A DNA stretch of 5,887 nucleotides from a virus. The stretch is from positions 1-5,887 of the IMG/VR virus record IMGVR_UViG_3300045988_008819. The stretch is one strand, 5' to 3'. Position 1 is the first letter of the stretch. Every line of letters starts with the position of its first letter. This document shows, in pieces, positions 1 to 5,887 of this stretch. Below the pieces are notes generated by a model, which saw only the letters and a program-made list of their open reading frames with translations, searched no databases and had not been told where the DNA came from. The translations under genes and the position numbers were made by a program.

Positions 1-55
1 GATATTGCACATTCGTGCGAAGGTTTCGTCGCTCTTGCTTTCACCAATGTAGCAG
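1..55. repeat. Terminal direct repeat, identical to 5833..5887; assembly overlap of a circular genome (unit length 5832 nt)
   Basis: Exact 55/55 nt identity between 1..55 and 5833..5887, checked by hand. Confidence 0.9.
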
Positions 56-102
56 TAGCTTTTTGCTACGCTGTCGTAGATGCCGTAGTAATTGTGAATC
101 AT
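1..102 (-). CDS. N-terminal 34 codons of an 80-aa wrap-around ORF (hypothetical protein with a GIY...YIG-like motif); the C-terminal part is at 5692..5832
   Basis: ATG at 102..100 on the minus strand. An in-frame TAA at 117..115 bounds the ORF upstream. SD AAAGGAG sits 8 nt upstream of the ATG. The reading frame runs through position 1 into 5832 with no stop. Translation: MIHNYYGIYDSVAKSYCYIGESKSDETFARMCNIM... Confidence 0.6.
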   Translation of the reverse strand, partial: MIHNYYGIYDSVAKSYCYIGESKSDETFARMCNI

Positions 103-223
103 GTTTTTTCTCCTTTACAGTCGGATGCCGCCCCGCATGGGTTTCTGGCTCAGGTTGATACTCTTCGTTTTTCGTGCCGTCACATTGAACATGCGTTTGT
201 CGGTTTTCATCGGCATTTTCTTT

Positions 224-445
224 CTATGCTTCATTGTTGTACTCCTTTCGCATTAGCTCTAACTGGATGTCGTTTGCCCATTTTTTCATTATCCAGATTC
301 GGTCAATGATTTTATGAGCTTCCTCTTTGTCTGAAATTTTCTTGATTATTTTGTATTCGGCTTCGATTTCGCGGTATAACTTATCCGCTTCCAGCCTTAA
401 ATCTTCTTCGGTCTGGTCTCTTACATTCCATGTTTTGTGTAGCAT
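224..445 (-). CDS. Hypothetical highly charged helical protein, 73 aa
   Basis: ATG 445..443 with SD AAGGAG 6 nt upstream. Same strand and operon context as the neighbours. Charged, coiled-coil-like composition; no TM segment and no recognisable motif. Confidence 0.55.
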   Translation of the reverse strand: MLHKTWNVRDQTEEDLRLEADKLYREIEAEYKIIKKISDKEEAHKIIDRIWIMKKWANDIQLELMRKEYNNEA

Positions 446-447
446 GT

Positions 448-552
448 TTACTCCTTTTCCTTCAGGATGTGGTAAATCTCATCCAGCTTTTCAAGGACTG
501 TCTTAATCAGCTGGATTGCTTCTCGCAGATCCTTGACCTTAATCAATGCCAT
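448..552 (-). CDS. Possible 34-aa amphipathic-helix micro-ORF (MALIKVKDLREAIQLIKTVLEKLDEIYHILKEKE)
   Basis: ATG at 552..550 comes 2 nt after the peptidase stop, with SD AAAGGGGGT 8 nt upstream. Its stop TAA (450..448) lies 2 nt before the next ATG (445). It fills an otherwise unexplained 109-nt gap in a tightly packed operon. It is below the track's length cutoff. Confidence 0.3.
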   Translation of the reverse strand: MALIKVKDLREAIQLIKTVLEKLDEIYHILKEKE

Positions 553-554
553 TT

Positions 555-938
555 TTATACCCCCTTTCTGTATCTCTCTTCACGTACGTCAATATGTGTG
601 AAATTTGTGTATCTGATTACGCCGCCTTGTTCCATGATGCCGTCTGCATATTTTGCGACTTCTTGACTGCTGTGTCCTTTTACTACGATATCGGCTGCCA
701 TCCCTTTGCAGTGGTATGAGTTTGGTGCTCCGTTTACTTTGCTGTTCCAGCTTGGTGTTCTGTATCCGCTGTTTATGATGACCGGTGCATTAAAGTGGTT
801 TCTGATTTTTTCCAGTGTTTCAAGTAGTTCTCTTGCTACCAGCAGTCCTTTCGTTTTGTCTTTGCACTGAAATTCTCTTGCTTTGAAGTGTTCGCTTACT
901 TTTCCGAAGTCTGCTTTTACATAGTTCACGTGCTTCAT
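555..938 (-). CDS. Zn-dependent peptidoglycan peptidase, peptidase M15 (M15_3/VanY-like) family; putative endolysin, 127 aa
   Basis: Family signature in the translation: ...NSGYRTPSWN..., SYHCKGMAADIVV (SxHxxGxAxD zinc ligands), and a distal His in FTHIDV. SD GAGAGGAAA lies upstream of ATG 938..936. A consensus promoter is directly upstream. Stop TAA at 557..555. Confidence 0.85.
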   Translation of the reverse strand: MKHVNYVKADFGKVSEHFKAREFQCKDKTKGLLVARELLETLEKIRNHFNAPVIINSGYRTPSWNSKVNGAPNSYHCKGMAADIVVKGHSSQEVAKYADGIMEQGGVIRYTNFTHIDVREERYRKGV

Positions 939-971
939 GCGGTTTCCTCTCTGCTGCGCGAAGCGCGGCGA

Positions 972-982
972 TTTTTTTTTTT
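972..982. repeat. Homopolymer T11 (A11 on the coding strand) between the -10 hexamer and the peptidase RBS
   Basis: Counted directly: 11 consecutive T. Confidence 0.9.
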
Positions 983-1011
983 ATTATAACAACAAAACCC
1001 GGAGCTGTCAA
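976..1011 (-). promoter_or_regulatory. Perfect-consensus sigma70 promoter: -35 TTGACA (1011..1006), 17-nt spacer, -10 TATAAT (988..983); predicted TSS inside the A11 run
   Basis: Minus strand: AAACCCGGAG-TTGACAG-CTCCGGGTTTTGTTGT-TATAAT-AAAAAAAAAAATCGCC...GAGAGGAAACCGCATG (peptidase). The -35 hexamer sits in the loop of the upstream terminator hairpin. Confidence 0.7.
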
Positions 1012-1021
1012 CTCCGGGTTT
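983..1021 (-). terminator. Rho-independent terminator after the 60-aa ORF: 10-bp stem AAACCCGGAG/CTCCGGGTTT (995..1004 / 1012..1021), 7-nt loop, followed by UUUUGUUGUU
   Basis: Perfect inverted repeat followed by a U-rich tract on the minus-strand transcript, starting 3 nt after the stop codon. Also T-rich on the plus side, so possibly bidirectional. Confidence 0.7.
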
Positions 1022-1024
1022 GGT

Positions 1025-1207
1025 TTATTCTTTTTCGGTGAAATACATTTTTACTGTTTCTACTTTTTGTAGGCTGTACAGCCCCGGGTGCCTGTTTGCG
1101 TAGTCTTCTGCTCTTTGTTTTGCGTATTTTGGTTCTGCGTTTAGTACCAGTACCGTGGTTATGCTGTCGTCAGCTTCAAGTTTTCTGAGTTCGTATGTGT
1201 GTTTCAT
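1025..1207 (-). CDS. Hypothetical small protein, 60 aa from ATG at 1207 (the track shows 63 aa from a GTG at 1216)
   Basis: SD AAGGAAGGTG lies 8 nt upstream of ATG 1207..1205. A near-consensus sigma70 promoter is immediately upstream. A strong intrinsic terminator hairpin sits 3 nt after the TAA stop (1027..1025). No TM segment and no recognisable domain. Confidence 0.6.
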   Translation of the reverse strand: MKHTYELRKLEADDSITTVLVLNAEPKYAKQRAEDYANRHPGLYSLQKVETVKMYFTEKE

Positions 1208-1227
1208 TTTTGGCACCTTCCTTTCTC

Positions 1228-1263
1228 TGATTATATTTTATCATATTTTTCTGATTTTGTCAA
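1228..1263 (-). promoter_or_regulatory. Sigma70-type promoter: -35 TTGACA (1263..1258), 17-nt spacer, extended -10 TGaTAAAAT (1243..1235); predicted TSS near 1228
   Basis: Read off the minus strand: ...AAAAAACTTGACAAAATCAGAAAAATATGATAAAATATAATCAGAGAAAGGAAGG...ATG. An A-tract (UP-like) lies upstream of the -35. Confidence 0.7.
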
Positions 1264-1291
1264 GTTTTTTTTGAAGAATTTTTCATTATAT

Positions 1292-1338
1292 GGCCGCTGT
1301 TGCGCGCTACGCGGCGCAACTTCCAGCGAAGCGCGGCC
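1292..1338. repeat. GC-rich nested inverted repeats: outer ggccgc (1292..1297)/gcggcc (1333..1338); inner 7-bp stem gttgcgc/gcgcaac (1299..1320); contains the 12-mer gcgaagcgcggc also found at 958..969
   Basis: Read directly. The 12-bp direct repeat gcgaagcgcggc occurs at 958..969 and 1326..1337. Each copy lies just upstream of a promoter-gene unit on the minus strand. Confidence 0.7.
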
Positions 1339-1376
1339 GTGGCTTTCCCGTTCGATTCCGGATTGCTTCTATTAGG

Positions 1377-1540
1377 TTTTCAACATTTTCAACATAGTTT
1401 TCAACTTTTCAACATTGTTAAACTTTAACACAATAGAGTGTTTCAACAATTCAACAAGTTTTCAACAAATCTTTCAACTAGTAATTATTTCTACTTTTCA
1501 CGTGATAACGTAGAATTATTCCTGTTTTCAACTTTTCCAC
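1377..1540. repeat. Iteron-like array: nine copies of TTCAAC, mostly as TTTTCAAC(A), plus degenerate copies, spaced about 8-12 bp apart
   Basis: TTCAAC occurs at 1379, 1388, 1400, 1408, 1442, 1450, 1461, 1473 and 1527. Variants TTTTCAC (1495) and TTTTCCAC (1533). The 9-mer caacaagtt is also repeated, at 1452 and 1561. Confidence 0.8.
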
Positions 1541-1545
1541 ATACC

Positions 1546-1561
1546 CTACTACTACTACTAC
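1546..1561. repeat. Trinucleotide microsatellite (CTA/TAC) x5
   Basis: ctactactactactac, read directly. Confidence 0.9.
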
Positions 1562-1577
1562 AACAAGTTATATTATA

Positions 1578-1628
1578 ATACGTGCGCACGCGTGCGCGTG
1601 TGGCTTTTCGCGTGCACGTGTGTGCGCG
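1578..1628. repeat. GC-rich block of two perfectly alternating purine-pyrimidine tracts (25 nt and 20 nt), including the 14-bp perfect palindrome gcgcacgcgtgcgc (1584..1597)
   Basis: 1578..1602 atacgtgcgcacgcgtgcgcgtgtg and 1609..1628 cgcgtgcacgtgtgtgcgcg both alternate Pu/Py without a break. They contain palindromes acgcgt, gtgcac and cacgtg. Confidence 0.8.
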
Positions 1629-1642
1629 ATTAGAATAATAAT

Positions 1643-1672
1643 GCCCAGTACCTTACTTGATAGGTACTGGGC
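1643..1672. other. Perfect 11-bp stem / 8-nt loop hairpin 29 nt downstream of the rep (VP4) stop codon; candidate terminator or replication-origin element
   Basis: gcccagtacct (1643..1653) pairs with aggtactgggc (1662..1672); loop tacttgat (1654..1661). Confidence 0.6.
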
Positions 1673-1685
1673 TAGGTGACACCGA

Positions 1686-2705
1686 TTATAAAATACCGCT
1701 CTTCTTCGTTTGTTTTTTCGTGACACGCTCTTTGGTCTCTAAGACGGTTTTATAATCTTGATTCTCTAACTGTAGTCTCTTCTGCTGCATTGCGTTTTTT
1801 TGTCGGTTCTGTTTAATTCTCCACAATCTTTGTGGGTTTTCTGCTTCCATTTGTTTTTCATAGTATCTTGGTATTTGTGCTCTTTTTCCGTTGGTACACT
1901 GAATGTAGCCTTGTCGCCAGATTTCTGCCTTGTGTTCTTGATAGTATTTATCTCCTAGACCCGGTTTTAAGCTCATGCAAGCAAATGGTTTTGTTTGCCC
2001 TAGCTCGTAGTATACGTTAGCTTTTTTACCGTCTATTTCGTACATTTTTTTTGTAACGTATCCTGCAACATATCTATATGTTTCTGGAACTGCTTGCGCT
2101 ATCTGTATTTGTCCCATTCCCCACAGACCTTTTAGCCATTCACTGGTATAGTATCCGTTGTGTTGAATCTTGTATAGATTTTCTAGGTCTGTTGGTTTCC
2201 ATCCGTATAGAATCATGTGGTAATGTGGTCTCGCTGTCTGTTCTCCGTACTCACCCGCTACAAAATAGCGTAATTTGCCCTTGTAAGCCTTTCTGAGGCG
2301 TTTTAGAAACTTTTGAATATCCTCATATAGTAAAATCTGAACGCTGCTAGGGCGCTTCTCTCCCGGCTTCCACGTGTATTGTACTTTTCGCATGATTTCA
2401 CCTGTTTTTACTATCATGCCCGGCACGTGGTCATCATCATACGTTAGCGTTATAAACCAAACTTCTTCTTTCGGATAGTCTCGTGCTTCCAGCTCTATGC
2501 GTGTTGTCCAGTCCTCCCTTTGTCTGATTCTGCATCCTATACATTGTCCGCATGGAATTAACATGATCTTTGGATTATACATTAAATCTTCATATTTTAG
2601 CTGTTTCCCGCTCAACTGAGAAAAGCGGGCGAGTGAATATACTCGCCCGCTCTGTTCTCTATCATTCGGGTTGTACAGTCGTATTAACGGCTTGTAGCAA
2701 CTCAT
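1686..2705 (-). CDS. VP4: Replication initiation protein VP4 (rolling-circle Rep, gene A homologue), 339 aa
   Basis: RCR motif I WFITLTYDD; motif II (HUH) RPHYHMILYG; motif III with two tyrosines YVAGYVTKK; Cys cluster CGQCIGCR. SD GGAGG lies upstream. ATGA overlap with VP2. Confidence 0.93.
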   Translation of the reverse strand: MSCYKPLIRLYNPNDREQSGRVYSLARFSQLSGKQLKYEDLMYNPKIMLIPCGQCIGCRIRQREDWTTRIELEARDYPKEEVWFITLTYDDDHVPGMIVKTGEIMRKVQYTWKPGEKRPSSVQILLYEDIQKFLKRLRKAYKGKLRYFVAGEYGEQTARPHYHMILYGWKPTDLENLYKIQHNGYYTSEWLKGLWGMGQIQIAQAVPETYRYVAGYVTKKMYEIDGKKANVYYELGQTKPFACMSLKPGLGDKYYQEHKAEIWRQGYIQCTNGKRAQIPRYYEKQMEAENPQRLWRIKQNRQKNAMQQKRLQLENQDYKTVLETKERVTKKQTKKSGIL

Positions 2706-3523
2706 TTATTTCTTTTTCCTCCTCTATTTTTGCTGAATTTTCCTCCTCCTGATTCAAACGGCACTGTTTTGTCTGTCTTTTCTAGCTGTTTCCATGTTTT
2801 CAGCAAATCTTCAGTTAGTTGGTATGGACTGCTGTAGCTTGTGCTCATCTGATTTCCTACGGCTTCTGCCAACTGATACCATTGTGATTTACTTTCGCTG
2901 CGGTTGTAGTAACTGTTTGGTACGTTGCCGTTTAGTGCTGATACTCCCAGTGCGCTTGATGCTGGCATTCCCATACTTGCGCCTGTGATTGTTGCGCCTG
3001 AGCCGCCCGGTGTGCTTGCTCCGCCTTGCGCGTATGCTAAGATGGGATTGATTCCTGCTTTTCGCATATCTTGAACGGTTCTTTGATATGCTGTATTGCT
3101 CATACGTTCCTGGAACTCTCTGTTTGCTAATGCTTCGGCGCTGTTATATTCCATAGCGGCGTTTTGCTCGATGTGGTTATAAATACCCTGTTGAATTGCT
3201 CCTAATGTGTTATAGCCCATCTGCATTAACATATTTTGACGGTTTGTTTTACTTTGAAAAGCGTTTTGTCCTCCTTGCCATTGATAGTATTTGTTGAGGT
3301 AGTCCATGATTTGCTTGTCGTTTGTGCCGCCCGCGCTCATGGATGTACTTTGCCCTCCGCCTTGGCTCTGGCTCATGTTATTGCCTTGGCTCTGGCTTTG
3401 ACTTTTCTGTCCGTAGAAACTTGATAGTCCGTTTCCAAGAAGTGACATTCCTGTCGTTACGACTTCTGGATGGCTTGCTAGCCATGTTCCTGCACTTGCT
3501 AGCATTGCTCCTAATCCTGCCAT
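2702..3523 (-). CDS. VP2: Minor capsid / DNA pilot protein VP2 (H-protein homologue), 273 aa
   Basis: Gly/Gln/Ser-rich low-complexity N-half (SQSQSQGNNMSQSQGGGQS). Conserved block EFQERMSNTAYQRTVQDMRKAGINPILAY, typical of Microviridae VP2. Sits directly after VP1. Its stop TGA overlaps the VP4 start as ATGA. Confidence 0.85.
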   Translation of the reverse strand: MAGLGAMLASAGTWLASHPEVVTTGMSLLGNGLSSFYGQKSQSQSQGNNMSQSQGGGQSTSMSAGGTNDKQIMDYLNKYYQWQGGQNAFQSKTNRQNMLMQMGYNTLGAIQQGIYNHIEQNAAMEYNSAEALANREFQERMSNTAYQRTVQDMRKAGINPILAYAQGGASTPGGSGATITGASMGMPASSALGVSALNGNVPNSYYNRSESKSQWYQLAEAVGNQMSTSYSSPYQLTEDLLKTWKQLEKTDKTVPFESGGGKFSKNRGGKRNK

Positions 3524-3551
3524 TATAAAATGGCCCGGATTTCTCCGGGCT
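3524..3551 (-). promoter_or_regulatory. Intercistronic hairpin between VP1 and VP2: 7-bp GC stem GCCCGGA/TCCGGGC with GAAA tetraloop, then CAUUUUAUA before the VP2 AUG
   Basis: Minus strand: TAA-AGAAAGGAGGAA-GCCCGGA-GAAA-TCCGGGC-CATTTTATA-ATG. The only SD-like sequence (AAGGAGG) is about 30 nt from the AUG, on the far side of the hairpin. Confidence 0.6.
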
Positions 3552-3562
3552 TCCTCCTTTCT

Positions 3563-5317
3563 TTATAGTTTTTCCAGACCCGGCACGCTATACAGTGGCA
3601 TGCATCGAGTTGTTTTGTTCATTACTCGGATTGCTCCAAAGAATTGCGGTTCATTTTGTACGATTAGTGTCCGTGCGATTTCGGTTTTTCCCTCTTTCAT
3701 CCACTCTTGGCTGAGTGTCGGCACTTCGTTGTAGTTGTCCGCGTAGTGCCAGAAGTCTAGTGTTCCGTCTGCATTGCTTCGCATTTTGCCGCTAACACGG
3801 TTCGGTTTCATGCGGTAGTCTGCCCAAGCTTCCTGATAGCCGAAAGTTTCTTCATCTGTGCTTGTGCCTGTCAGCATGATTTCTTTCTTTTTTACGGGCT
3901 GCTCGCCGATGTTTGCGAACTGCGGGAAATAGTAGTCCAATCTGTCGCTTCGGCTCCAGAATCGTTCAAGTCCCTGTTGATAGCTGTGGTCGTGACGCAC
4001 ACACATAACACCAATTACAAAGCCGTGCTCTTCAAAGCTTTTTGTAAAGGAACTTTCATTGATAGGAGTTACTGACATTGCGCCTGTTTCACCGATTGGT
4101 GTTCCGTTGTTTGCTTCCTGACCGCTTGTCTGTACGATCTGGTTCATGTTGACGTGATAGCGTCCACCGCCTAAATATTCCGGAATCTGAACGGTTTTGT
4201 CGCTGATGCTTACTCCAAACAGTGCTCTTACCTGTTCGCGGTAGCGACTGCCGCCACGTGCCAGCGCTTCATAATAGTGCTGAACTGCAAAGGCCTGGCG
4301 TAACTGGTTGATTGTTGCTGCTTCGATGTTGCTTAGATCTGTTCCTAACCATGCGTCAAAGAAGTTTGCATCATCTCGGCTCATTGTCTGGACGTATTGT
4401 CCATCGATTACTGGTGCTGTGTTTCCGTTGTTGTTTTTGTTTAGGCCGAATTTTGTTCCTTCGTTTGTGAATGAGATGCTTGTGTGATTTACTATTCCGG
4501 TGTTATATTCGTTGTTGAAATATCCTGTTCCTACTTTTCTGTCGGTCAGTTCTTTTTCTGTGTAGGCTCTTAACGGTGCGTTTCCTGTTAGTGCAATTGT
4601 CACTTCCGGCCCGCGCTGAGGATACGGCAGACACGATGAAAAATAATCATGGAAGCGGTTTACAGGTAAACAGTATCCGCCATTTTGTGCGTTCTTTAGA
4701 ATTGTTTCTTCAGAGATTTCGTCTTCTATTGGTCCGCCTGATGCGTATTCTGTACTTTCATCTCCTGTGTTCAGTACTGCTGGGTTTCCTACGTTTTGAT
4801 CTCTAAAAAATTCGTTCCAGATTTTCACATAAGCTCTGACCGGTAGTGCATTGATACTGTATTCTGCTTCTTTGTCTATTTTGATGCTTTTTGCCGGGAT
4901 TCCCATATAGTCCAGAATTGTCCCTTCGTCTGGGTATGCTCTGTCTGGATTAGGCCATATACTTTTGTTTCCTACTATGATTTGTGGTACTGTGTACGTT
5001 TTTGACGGCATCCACGGCTTATCGTCTGCTTCACCCATGAACTGTTTGAAATTGTCCCACAAAATCCGGTTCGGACAGAAGAAGTAATAGAAGTCTATAT
5101 ATGCGTCGTCCATTACAGGATATTTCGGCGTTGTCATTCGAATGATTGCTGCCGTATCTACGCTGAATGTATCACCCGGAAGAACCTCATCAACATAAAA
5201 TGGGATGAGTTTACCTGCATCGAAGGTTGTCAGGATGTTCTGGTCTCGTTTGAATCGTGTTCGGCTTACGTGCGTTTCTGGTACTTGGTTGAAGTGCCTC
5301 TCATTATTCCTGTTCAT
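3563..5317 (-). CDS. VP1: Microviridae major capsid protein VP1 (F-protein homologue), 584 aa
   Basis: The N-terminus carries the conserved gokusho-type motif TTFDAGKLIPFYVDEVLPGDTF. Size and composition are typical of VP1. SD AAGAGGAAAA precedes the ATG. The stop is TAA at 3565..3563. Confidence 0.95.
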   Translation of the reverse strand: MNRNNERHFNQVPETHVSRTRFKRDQNILTTFDAGKLIPFYVDEVLPGDTFSVDTAAIIRMTTPKYPVMDDAYIDFYYFFCPNRILWDNFKQFMGEADDKPWMPSKTYTVPQIIVGNKSIWPNPDRAYPDEGTILDYMGIPAKSIKIDKEAEYSINALPVRAYVKIWNEFFRDQNVGNPAVLNTGDESTEYASGGPIEDEISEETILKNAQNGGYCLPVNRFHDYFSSCLPYPQRGPEVTIALTGNAPLRAYTEKELTDRKVGTGYFNNEYNTGIVNHTSISFTNEGTKFGLNKNNNGNTAPVIDGQYVQTMSRDDANFFDAWLGTDLSNIEAATINQLRQAFAVQHYYEALARGGSRYREQVRALFGVSISDKTVQIPEYLGGGRYHVNMNQIVQTSGQEANNGTPIGETGAMSVTPINESSFTKSFEEHGFVIGVMCVRHDHSYQQGLERFWSRSDRLDYYFPQFANIGEQPVKKKEIMLTGTSTDEETFGYQEAWADYRMKPNRVSGKMRSNADGTLDFWHYADNYNEVPTLSQEWMKEGKTEIARTLIVQNEPQFFGAIRVMNKTTRCMPLYSVPGLEKL

Positions 5318-5699
5318 TGTTTTCCTCTTGTTTCTTTGGTTTGTTTTTTGTGTTTTCCTGCATCTGCTGCAGTTTCATTGCGTTGGCCTGTGCTGTTGCC
5401 ATCATTGCGTGATACTCGTGAATGTCGGTTGGCCACTCCGTGATGTCCAGGATTTCGTCTGTTTTTGTGCTGTCCATCAGACTTTTAGCAAACTGTGGGT
5501 CGAAACTTGCTTTGCGGACGATGTTTTTGATGTCACATTCATCTGCATAGCTTTCGATTTCTGCCTGAATGTCAATCGGTTCAGTTTCGATTAATTTTTC
5601 GTTGCCTTTTTCGTCTTTGCCCCAGACATACTGTTTTCTCATTTTTTCGCCTGGATTTGAAAAGAAGGGCTTGCGCCCTTCCTCGTATCGTTTATTCAT
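5304..5699 (-). CDS. 131-aa acidic protein immediately upstream of and overlapping VP1; putative internal scaffolding protein (VP3-like)
   Basis: ATG at 5699..5697 (MNKRYEEGRKPFF...) lies inside the CATGAATAA that carries the upstream ORF's stop. The ORF ends at TAA 5306..5304 and overlaps the VP1 start by 14 nt. The first 60 codons of the track's 191-aa ORF (TTG start at 5879) are the out-of-frame read of the wrap-around ORF. The protein is small, acidic and helix-prone, and precedes the capsid gene as scaffolding genes do in Microviridae. The product call is positional inference, not recognised homology. Confidence 0.5.
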   Translation of the reverse strand: MNKRYEEGRKPFFSNPGEKMRKQYVWGKDEKGNEKLIETEPIDIQAEIESYADECDIKNIVRKASFDPQFAKSLMDSTKTDEILDITEWPTDIHEYHAMMATAQANAMKLQQMQENTKNKPKKQEENNEQE

Positions 5700-5832
5700 G
5701 CGGTTTGCCCTCCCACACCTTGTCCGGCTCGATGCTCTTAAACTCGCCGGTCTCATCGTTGAAGTTTGCGACATGGTAGCCCTTGTAGTCCTCAGGCGAC
5801 TGCCCAAGGAAGGTCTTTTCGTCCTTTGCCAT
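5692..5832 (-). CDS. C-terminal 46 codons plus stop of the wrap-around 80-aa ORF (continues from 1..102)
   Basis: In-frame continuation AKDEKTFLGQSPEDYKGYHVANFNDETGEFKSIEPDKVWEGKPHE, ending at TAA (5694..5692). The stop lies in CATGAATAA, which contains the ATG of the next gene. This frame is G/C-rich at third positions. The other frame over the same DNA gives an R/S/T-rich junk peptide. The ORF is absent from the track because the window end splits it. Confidence 0.6.
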   Translation of the reverse strand: MAKDEKTFLGQSPEDYKGYHVANFNDETGEFKSIEPDKVWEGKPHE

Positions 5833-5887
5833 GATATTGCACATTCGTGCGAAGGTTTCGTCGCTCTTGCTTTCACCAATGTAGCAG
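5833..5887. repeat. Second copy of the terminal redundancy (same as 1..55)
   Basis: Same as above. Coordinates 5833 onward are equivalent to 1 onward. Confidence 0.9.

Follow-up and report, generated by a model that had tools for sequence, protein, structure and literature searches.

The DNA stretch analysed here (the window; positions 1 to 5,887 of IMG/VR record IMGVR_UViG_3300045988_008819, that is, 5,887 nucleotides) has its first 55 nt repeated at its end (1–55 = 5833–5887), and so represents the complete circular genome, 5832 nt long, of a gokushovirus-type microvirus. All recognisable genes are on the minus strand and code for the scaffold protein VP3 (5879–5304; Pfam, PHROGs), a VP5-like DNA-binding protein (5844–5692; Pfam, PHROGs), the capsid protein VP1 (5317–3563; Phage_F, 1e-134), the pilot protein VP2 (3523–2702; PHROGs), the HUH-type replication protein Rep, or VP4 (2705–1686; PF23343; phrog_942, 2.5e-108), and an M15 peptidase (938–555; Pfam, PHROGs). 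VP4 is the only replication gene recognised, and no gene of the RepA, pi or TrfA type is present in the window. The element in question lies in the 469-nt non-coding stretch between the VP4 stop codon and the promoter of the downstream genes (1217–1685; promoter TTGACA-17-TAAAAT, 1263–1235, minus strand), where there is no recognisable gene. An earlier note had described there an array of iteron-like repeats, downstream of rep, in a gene-free region and upstream of a strong promoter at 1263, and this context was correctly drawn. We find that the array is part of a cassette of about 212 bp (1372–1583), in which it is joined to a sequence built like the basal unwinding system (BUS) of bacterial chromosome origins, and that the repeats are best read, from their sequence, as predicted DnaA boxes rather than as Rep iterons.

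The hexamer TTCAAC is present 14 times in the window, against an expected 3.56 ± 1.85, and 14 was reached in none of 200 dinucleotide-preserving shuffles. Nine copies, the exact cores already counted in the earlier note, are on the plus strand and all fall within 1379–1532 (starts at 1379, 1388, 1400, 1408, 1442, 1450, 1461, 1473 and 1527). When their flanks are considered, the repeat unit is the 9-mer TTTTCAACA; six copies are exactly TTTTCAAC and two differ by one base. A tenth box, TTTTCCACA, i.e. TTTTCCAC(A), is present at 1533–1541. The unit, TTTTC(A/C)ACA, is by sequence a DnaA-box variant, and all ten boxes point the same way. Tandem Repeats Finder reported arrays of period 8, 9, 11 and 20, plus (CTA)5 at 1546–1561. 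The boxes are arranged as tandem pairs, with 8–12 bp between starts, and the ten starts lie on one helix face (R=0.78 at 10.5 bp, 0.31 at 10.0 and 0.26 at 11.0), a phasing obtained in a fraction of 0.00075 of random placements and seen also across 123 cassettes of related phages (median R 0.77). The roughly helical-turn spacing proposed before is, in fact, more exact than had been claimed.

From left to right on the plus strand, the cassette starts with a distal group of four boxes (1377–1414), with TTTTCAACA at 1377 and 1386, TTTTCAACT at 1398 and TTTTCAACA at 1406, which in relatives is located at −143 to −183 from the first CTA. The degenerate boxes TTGTTAAAC and TTTAACACA follow (1415–1439), constituting a small palindrome between the box groups that varies between clades. 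In one clade, with L043 (1610–1630) and L096 (same cassette position), the palindrome between the groups is CCGTCATAATGACGAAC, which differs from that of the window (1415–1432) and contains TGACGAA, a motif that we take to resemble the Spo0A 0A-box TGNCGAA. The middle group again has four boxes (1440–1479), GTTTCAACA at 1440, AATTCAACA at 1448, TTTTCAACA at 1459 and CTTTCAACT at 1471, and is separated from the proximal pair by a spacer (1480–1524) with the degenerate boxes ATTTCTAC and TTTTCACG and with a semi-conserved T-run followed by ACG...AACGT motifs.

The proximal tandem boxes, TTTTCAAC/TTTTCCACA, have an 8-nt offset (1525–1541). The upstream one is TTTTCAACT (1525–1533), with 3 mismatches to TTATCCACA, and the second, TTTTCCACA (1533–1541), conforms to the relaxed consensus TTWTNCACA and differs from TTATCCACA by a single base. 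Next come a 4-nt spacer, TACC (1542–1545), with fixed length and variable sequence, and five CTA triplets (1546–1560), which on the complementary strand read as DnaA-trios (3'-GAT-5'). The sequence after them in the window is CAACAAGTTATATTATAATA; it comprises the conserved CAACAAGT and the AT-rich end TATATTATAATA (1561–1583), a putative DNA unwinding element that constitutes the right edge of the cassette and includes the third least stable 20-mer of the genome (1562–1581). The extent given before, 1377–1540, therefore holds for the array, but its end cuts the last box and leaves out the spacer, the triplets and the AT-rich end, which belong to the same unit (about 1372–1583). As single-stranded DNA, the BUS part of the cassette has no structure (z=0.6).

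Other readings of the region were considered. A XerCD/dif site at 1561–1598, made of the AT-rich stretch and GTGCGCAC and judged by eye, was rejected, as the adjacent GC block is not conserved between genomes. A coding role of the three open reading frames of 42–52 amino acids that overlap the region was set aside; relatives show indels and inversions there, and the 52-residue frame gave a single weak Pfam match, below threshold. In 900–1800 no known RNA family or tRNA came near threshold.

Match to bacterial replication origins

In a BUS, one or more DnaA boxes are followed by a spacer, about 4 bp long and often rich in GC, then by three or more trios and finally by AT-rich DNA (PMC8287927, PMC6669920, PMC8235120). 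The triplet 5'-CTA-3' is the complement of the DnaA-trio 3'-GAT-5', and a GC-rich stretch of 4–5 bp follows the box proximal to the unwinding element in chromosome origins (oriCs) (PMC8235120); in Clostridioides difficile the trio is given as 5'-CACCTACTACTATTACTACTATGA-3' (PMC7561715). The three box-proximal trios are necessary and sufficient in Bacillus subtilis (bioRxiv 10.1101/2022.03.18.484894) and, in Helicobacter pylori, spacer length counts more than spacer sequence and reversal of trio polarity abolishes opening (PMC8235120). The rules of the BUS program call for a box with at most 2 mismatches to TTATCCACA, 0–16 nt from the trios, and a weaker box with at most 4 mismatches (PMC8287927).

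We observed each of these traits in the cassette: a box near the trios (TTTTCCACA, 1 mismatch, 4-nt spacer), a second tandem box in the same orientation directly upstream (TTTTCAACT, 8-nt offset), a short spacer (TACC; 4 nt in the cassettes), five CTA triplets with the polarity of the 101 dnaA/dnaN-linked bacterial sites described below, and an AT-rich region after the trios (1562–1581). Judged by sequence, the cassette has every BUS trait that was tried and departs from a BUS in chromosomal location only, since it is located between VP4 and a small open reading frame of a microvirus and not beside dnaA/dnaN. A search of both strands of the genome retrieved this single BUS-like site, at 1533 (TTTTCCACA, 4-nt spacer, five trios), while composition-matched shuffles gave 0.30 BUS-like sites per genome and 0.003 with five or more trios. 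Because the cassette is on a microvirus genome it is not a chromosomal oriC, and our claim is limited to its being built like, and probably working like, a BUS. In this respect, the idea that the array may be an origin component gains support, as the elements that adjoin it (spacer, DnaA-trios, AT-rich stretch) follow the order and polarity found in bacterial oriCs.

In order to compare the cassette with real origins, the pattern taken from the phage (proximal box, 4 nt and CTACTACTAC), that is TTWTCMACANNNNCTACTACTAC, was searched in one genome per species of 185,579 bacterial and archaeal species (596 Gb), neighbouring open reading frames of the matches were clustered, the clusters were named with Pfam, and linkage to dnaA or dnaN was taken as a distance within 3.5 kb. 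At least 120 bacterial loci match, against about 17 expected by chance according to our own calculation. Among the 120 matches listed, dnaN is near 88, dnaA near 82 and at least one of them near 101, RecF, gyrB and yidC are also common neighbours, and the usual order is dnaA, match, dnaN; 101 of these 120 loci are thus at the chromosome origin. Circularity is avoided by restricting the listed matches to the proximal boxes of the phage itself, with which 55 of 64 (TTTTCCACA) and 11 of 14 (TTTTCAACA) are at oriC.

The likeness extends to the details of the module. Among the 101 listed oriC matches, the tandem proximal form has an 8-nt offset in 20 and a 9-nt offset in 48, and the 8-nt tandem reads TTTTCCAC/TTTTCCACA or TTATCCAC/TTTTCCACA; as an example, one bacterial origin has GTTATCCAC/TTTTCCACA/TCCC/CTACTACTAC, to be compared with GTTTTCAAC/TTTTCCACA/TACC/CTACTACTAC in the phage. 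The mean GC content of the spacer is 2.4 of 4 positions in the phages and 3.0 of 4 in bacterial oriCs, and the 25 nt after the trios are 75% AT in phages and 83% in bacteria, so that the 8-nt tandem pair, spacer length, trio number and AT-rich follow-on are all inside the bacterial range. The cassette shares with the bacterial BUS, of which B. subtilis incC between dnaA and dnaN is an example (PMC6669920, PMC8287927), the tandem boxes, the spacer of about 4 nt, at least three trios and AT-rich DNA in the same order and polarity, further helically phased boxes upstream and a 23-nt core identical to that of many real origins. It differs in being on a 5.8-kb single-stranded DNA phage away from dnaA/dnaN, in its unidirectional boxes, mostly TTTTCAACA, in a shorter AT-rich part, in the phage-specific CAACAAGT after the trios and in that its activity is a predicted one.

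The box variant also bears on the host. Among the matches listed, the box next to the trios is TTTTCAACA in origins of gut and rumen Clostridia, namely Ruminococcus (L219, L222, L243), Acutalibacteraceae (L178, L197), Christensenella (L181), Eubacteriales (L149, L236) and other Clostridia (L175, L200, L212), and these origins also hold TTATCAACA and TTTTTAACA, which are minor variants of the phage arrays too. The most cassette-like layout among the listed bacterial origins is that of L248, from a Eubacteriales metagenome-assembled genome, in which TTTTCCACA-GACA-CTACTACTAC is preceded by five boxes of the TTCAAC type and the AT-rich region is followed by a GGCGCGCGCGAG block. The box variant suggests that the phage hosts may be gut Clostridia such as Ruminococcus, Acutalibacteraceae and Christensenellales, hosts that would agree with the strong Shine-Dalgarno sites and the TTGACA/TATAAT promoters of the phage. 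An exact-protein look-up aimed at the host returned two metagenome scaffolds only. The closest GenBank relatives of the window come from faeces of human, pig, monkey, dog and mink; the window scaffold itself is also present in ENA assembly ERZ28623970, and ERZ28662376 has an over-circularised copy of 7290 nt.

Conservation and inversion among gut microviruses

Comparison with related Microviridae, which the earlier note had proposed, revealed that the motif is conserved: the cassette is present in more than 150 gut microvirus genomes, with Rep down to 36% identity. A scan of IMG/VR with the right-hand 24-mer CTACTACNNNTACAACAAGTTATA, through which most of the comparison genomes were ascertained, retrieved at least 119 contigs, all microvirus-sized except the concatemer-length L076 and an unrelated 20-kb dsDNA phage, L111, with DNA polymerase, helicase and primase genes, in which a lone match (1536–1559) without DnaA boxes nearby was dismissed as chance. 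BLAST with the cassette gave 46 GenBank records, all from microviruses or unclassified gut phages. A version with canonical boxes (TTATCCACA + 4 nt + CTACTACTA) matched 17 times in IMG/VR, in contigs of 8.8–162 kb, none of which is microvirus-sized.

An alignment of eleven genomes delimited a near-invariant core, GTTTTCAAC-TTTTCCACA-NNNN-CTACTACTAC-NNC-TACAACAAGT-(AT-rich). In 129 cassettes, the median number of TTCAAC is 8 and that of GTTGAA is 0, and boxes are conserved at −16 and −24, at −78, −90, −101 and −109, and at −143 to −183 from the first CTA. The proximal pair is present at −24 in 109 and at −16 in 121 of the 129, and the middle boxes at −109, −101, −90 and −78 are found in 95, 49, 108 and 81, respectively. 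Box cores have 1.52 bits of information per position, against 0.84 for the DNA between boxes. Trios 1–3 do not vary in any cassette, trio 4 varies freely, and the spacer has a fixed length but no fixed sequence, a pattern that fits the BUS rules on spacer length and on the three proximal trios, as far as sequence can tell. CAACAAGT is near-invariant, also in genomes found by BLAST rather than by motif.

Across cassette genomes, identities to the window range over 36–97% for VP4 and 40–93% for VP1. Among genomes with a VP4 just 36–47% identical to that of the window, no DNA is better conserved than the cassette, which is also the only stretch that megablast aligns between the window and distant relatives (H18–H22). 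A non-coding cassette that outlasts proteins points to a strongly constrained partner, and its conservation while VP4 diverges fits recognition by a conserved host protein. The earlier suggestion of a Rep or host-factor binding site is therefore retained in its second half, with DnaA as the named factor and an oriC-like layout, and not in its first, as the boxes stay constant while VP4 diverges to 36%.

Relative to the genes, the cassette is inverted in 12 of 129 genomes, from at least five separate lineages that include a whole deep clade (L030, L063, L089, L132). Pairwise comparisons (L043 with L096, L069 with L114 and L018 with L020) revealed an in-place flip of a single 212-bp segment, from the first box to the AT-rich end, with collinear flanks. 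At four-fold sites, the A-over-T skew of the coding strand is −0.56 in genomes with the standard orientation and −0.59 in inverted ones; since it is equal in both, the cassette does not set the strand asymmetry. This skew is marked in the window itself, whose coding strand is very A-rich and T-poor at such sites ((T−A)/(T+A) = −0.64; mean of −0.56 over loci), and the coding strand of phiMH2K has likewise 34.8% A and 19.1% T. The inversions point to a cassette that would work in either orientation relative to the genes and, taken together with the equal skew and the unstructured single strand, favour an action on the double-stranded replicative form.

The inversion breakpoints are at the AT-rich right end (1561–1583), and GC-rich blocks sit at the breakpoints. 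In the window, one such block is located between array and promoter (1290–1345), with similar blocks flanking the cassette in relatives, and another, of alternating purines and pyrimidines, is beside the AT-rich end (1581–1630), as in many relatives but not all; as single-stranded DNA the latter forms a 20-bp hairpin (−20 kcal/mol, z=−3.4). These CGCGCAC-type blocks, of which a third is at 951–970, stand out from a genome with 43.5% GC, vary among genomes and are quasi-palindromic. The flanking ones could mediate the flips, and the blocks in general could be recombination substrates, supercoil-focusing clamps or single-strand origin hairpins. Elsewhere in the genome, we noticed a perfect 12/12 promoter, TTGACA-17-TATAAT with a TG extension (983–1025, minus strand), within a terminator-like hairpin (995–1021) and upstream of the M15 peptidase gene.

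Competing explanations and the hairpin downstream of VP4

If the repeats are DnaA boxes, they need not belong to an origin: the cluster could never fire and instead lower free DnaA, as a sink of the datA or inc type, or be a DnaA switch for the promoter at 1263. With ten phased boxes on each of many copies of the replicative form, DnaA would be titrated; in B. subtilis, additional clusters of DnaA boxes are reported to influence initiation (PMC3245932); and the array is 115–280 nt upstream of the strong promoter. Neither a sink nor an operator, however, has need of a conserved 4-nt spacer, three invariant trios with correct polarity and an AT-rich end, and flipped lineages persist and diversify despite their altered geometry relative to the promoter. 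Escherichia coli datA and the B. subtilis clusters (PMC3245932) resemble the cassette as DnaA-box clusters that could titrate the initiator, but are not reported with a module of spacer, trios and AT-rich DNA of the BUS type, all three of which the phage cassette conserves. We hold this explanation to be improbable.

A second possibility is that the repeats are iterons of VP4, constituting the bind locus of a rolling-circle origin with the nick site in or beside the cassette, as in pMV158 or CRESS-DNA viruses. VP4 is, in fact, an HUH-type Rep, and a conserved hairpin with CTTGATA lies about 100 nt from the array. Both phiX174 (CAACTTG^ATA) and plasmids of the pC194 type are nicked at a CTTG/ATA motif, and the recognition decamer of the phiX174 origin on the nicked strand is CAACTTGATA. 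The hairpin, GCCCAGTACCT-TACTTGAT-AGGTACTGGGC (1643–1672, plus strand), is just downstream of the VP4 stop codon and has CTTGATA at 1656–1662, in the loop TACTTGAT. It folds with −12.1 kcal/mol (z=−6.9 against shuffles) and was also flagged as terminator-like; its stem has compensatory changes at 5 of 9 pairs and its loop is invariant. Of 136 genomes, 123 have CTTGATA(G) with a stem of at least 7 bp, in every case on the non-coding strand, i.e. antisense to the genes; the 136 are 133 cassette-clade genomes plus phiMH2K, SpV4 and Chp2, the last three of which all fail to qualify. After the hairpin there is an invariant TGACAC (region 1643–1683, plus strand), and SpV4 has AAACTTGATA on its coding strand.

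Two sequences of the region resemble the phiX174 decamer. ACTTGATA of the hairpin, with the loop sequence TTACTTGATA, shares 8 of 10 bases with it, and CAACAAGTTA at the right end of the cassette (1561–1570), near-invariant across clades, shares 7 of 10. The CAACAAGTTATA site and the hairpin loop are candidate VP4 cleavage sites, and CAACAAGTTA, directly after the trios, may be a second Rep-related site within the unwinding region. In 117 of 124 genomes, CTTGATA lies on the CTA strand of the cassette and the BUS faces the hairpin, with a median of 138 nt between them; in the remaining 7 the two are opposed and 300–470 nt apart. The antisense position of the motif would mean either that these phages nick and package the antisense strand or that their Rep has a different specificity.

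The HUH Rep, the nearby hairpin, CAACAAGTTA and the shared strand are in favour of Rep iterons. Against this reading, Rep iterons normally change with their Rep, and the boxes are unchanged across VP4 identities of 36–97%; there is no reason for a Rep site to reproduce a bacterial oriC in detail, with spacer and trios; and no similar iterons were found in 72,556 plasmids, with four 40-nt Acinetobacter matches only. Because the cassette can flip and come to lie 300–470 nt away while the hairpin retains its orientation, Rep recognition is probably better assigned to the hairpin, the better nick-site candidate, than to the array. Rolling-circle origins such as the 30-nt one of phiX174 and those of pC194 and pMV158 also have an HUH Rep gene beside non-coding repeats and a CTTG/ATA-type hairpin, but the cassette repeats do not co-vary with Rep, as those of a bind locus beside its nick site would; they copy the host oriC, with the nick-like hairpin separate and of fixed orientation. 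The iterons of CRESS-DNA viruses (geminiviruses, circoviruses) are likewise short intergenic repeats of small circular single-stranded DNAs with an HUH Rep; they adjoin the nick stem-loop and change with Rep specificity, whereas the cassette repeats are constant across deep Rep divergence and match the site of a host protein. That the array consists of Rep iterons thus seems to us distinctly improbable.

The cassette also differs from the origins of mobile replicons that recruit DnaA through boxes by an AT-rich region and direct repeats (P1 oriR, pSC101, F, RK2 and R6K). In those origins, iterons of 17–22 bp bind a plasmid-encoded initiator and DnaA is a helper; in the cassette, the unit is 8–9 bp, the repeats themselves are the predicted DnaA boxes, trios are present and there is no initiator gene of the RepA, pi or TrfA type.

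The earlier note had also raised the possibility that the phased T-tracts are an intrinsically bent, UP-like activator of the promoter at 1263, needing no specific protein partner. The T4 runs do show the 10.5-bp phasing (R=0.78), and the promoter downstream of them is close to consensus, but conservation is strongest at the CAAC/CCAC part and not in the T-tract alone, a GC-rich block separates array and promoter, and the trios and the oriC match would be left unexplained; with the cassette flipped relative to the promoter in 12 of 129 genomes, curvature is very unlikely to be the selected function. A functionless passenger, whether host oriC DNA captured recently or a low-complexity repeat arisen by chance, is hardly credible in spite of the likeness to host origins and of the classical gokushoviruses that do without the cassette: IMG/VR has at least 119 contigs with it and GenBank 46 records, from several deep clades, its conservation is position-specific, no listed bacterial oriC continues with CAACAAGT, and chance is excluded by the shuffles.

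Proposed role of the cassette

Based on anatomy, phasing, conservation and likeness to real origins, we consider it likely that host DnaA binds the cassette and that the double-stranded replicative form is opened there in the manner of a BUS. DnaA-ATP of the host would fill the phased boxes, oligomerise from the proximal pair onto the trio strand and melt the AT-rich end. The opened region could then give access to the helicase-loading machinery of the host and so to replication of the replicative form, either independently of the phage Rep or in support of it; less certainly, this replication would be of theta type, serving amplification or plasmid-like carriage. In the common orientation, opening may help to expose the nearby nick hairpin on the strand left free by DnaA, and a multicopy box array would, as a side effect, titrate DnaA from the host origin.

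Several observations weigh against this proposal. At position 6, nine of the ten window boxes carry A instead of C, which places them outside the classical TTWTNCACA, and the affinity of DnaA for TTTTCAACA is implied only by the use of this box in origins of Clostridia. The AT-rich stretch of the window is short, about 20 nt, and is followed by a GC block. The bacterial origins listed have nothing equivalent to CAACAAGT, the near-invariant sequence after the trios; the BUS model leaves this sequence unexplained, and it may be a site related to Rep. Conservation of the right end is overstated because of ascertainment with the 24-mer, although the genomes ascertained by BLAST agree. Neither cassette nor trios were found in the classical gokushoviruses phiMH2K, SpV4 and Chp2, so the element is not essential to the family and, to our knowledge, rolling-circle phages are not known to need DnaA.

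As for the consequence of DnaA binding, origin firing is a serious possibility, one that we nevertheless stop short of expecting; assistance to Rep is rather unlikely, and so, to about the same degree, is an effect limited to titration or regulation. The strongest form of the proposal, a working miniature chromosome origin at which DnaA alone would start the double-stranded form without Rep, with a theta or plasmid-like carrier state tied to the cell cycle and the host origin starved, is offered tentatively, and we doubt it more than we believe it.

Microviridae are the textbook case of Rep-driven rolling-circle replication, in which a DnaA module is unexpected. Literature searches for a link of Microviridae or gokushoviruses with DnaA, the DnaA box, an oriC-like element or a hairpin found nothing relevant, in agreement with the statement of the earlier note that Microviridae origins have not been described as having iterons; most subscription journals were outside the search, so a prior report is possible. 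Gokushoviruses dominate the single-stranded DNA viromes of the gut and their replication origins have not been mapped. The cassette offers a simple sequence signature for recognising this phage group and, as a naturally pared-down, orientation-free version of 212 bp, a handle on the minimal sequence for opening by DnaA. If our reading is true, a minimal single-stranded DNA virus would plug directly into the chromosome-initiation machinery of its host, giving a handle on phage replication and persistence and, through the box variant, on the bacteria infected. If, further, DnaA alone did initiate, Microviridae would have a way of replicating and persisting that is new for them, which might help to explain their long-term stability in the gut without an integrase.

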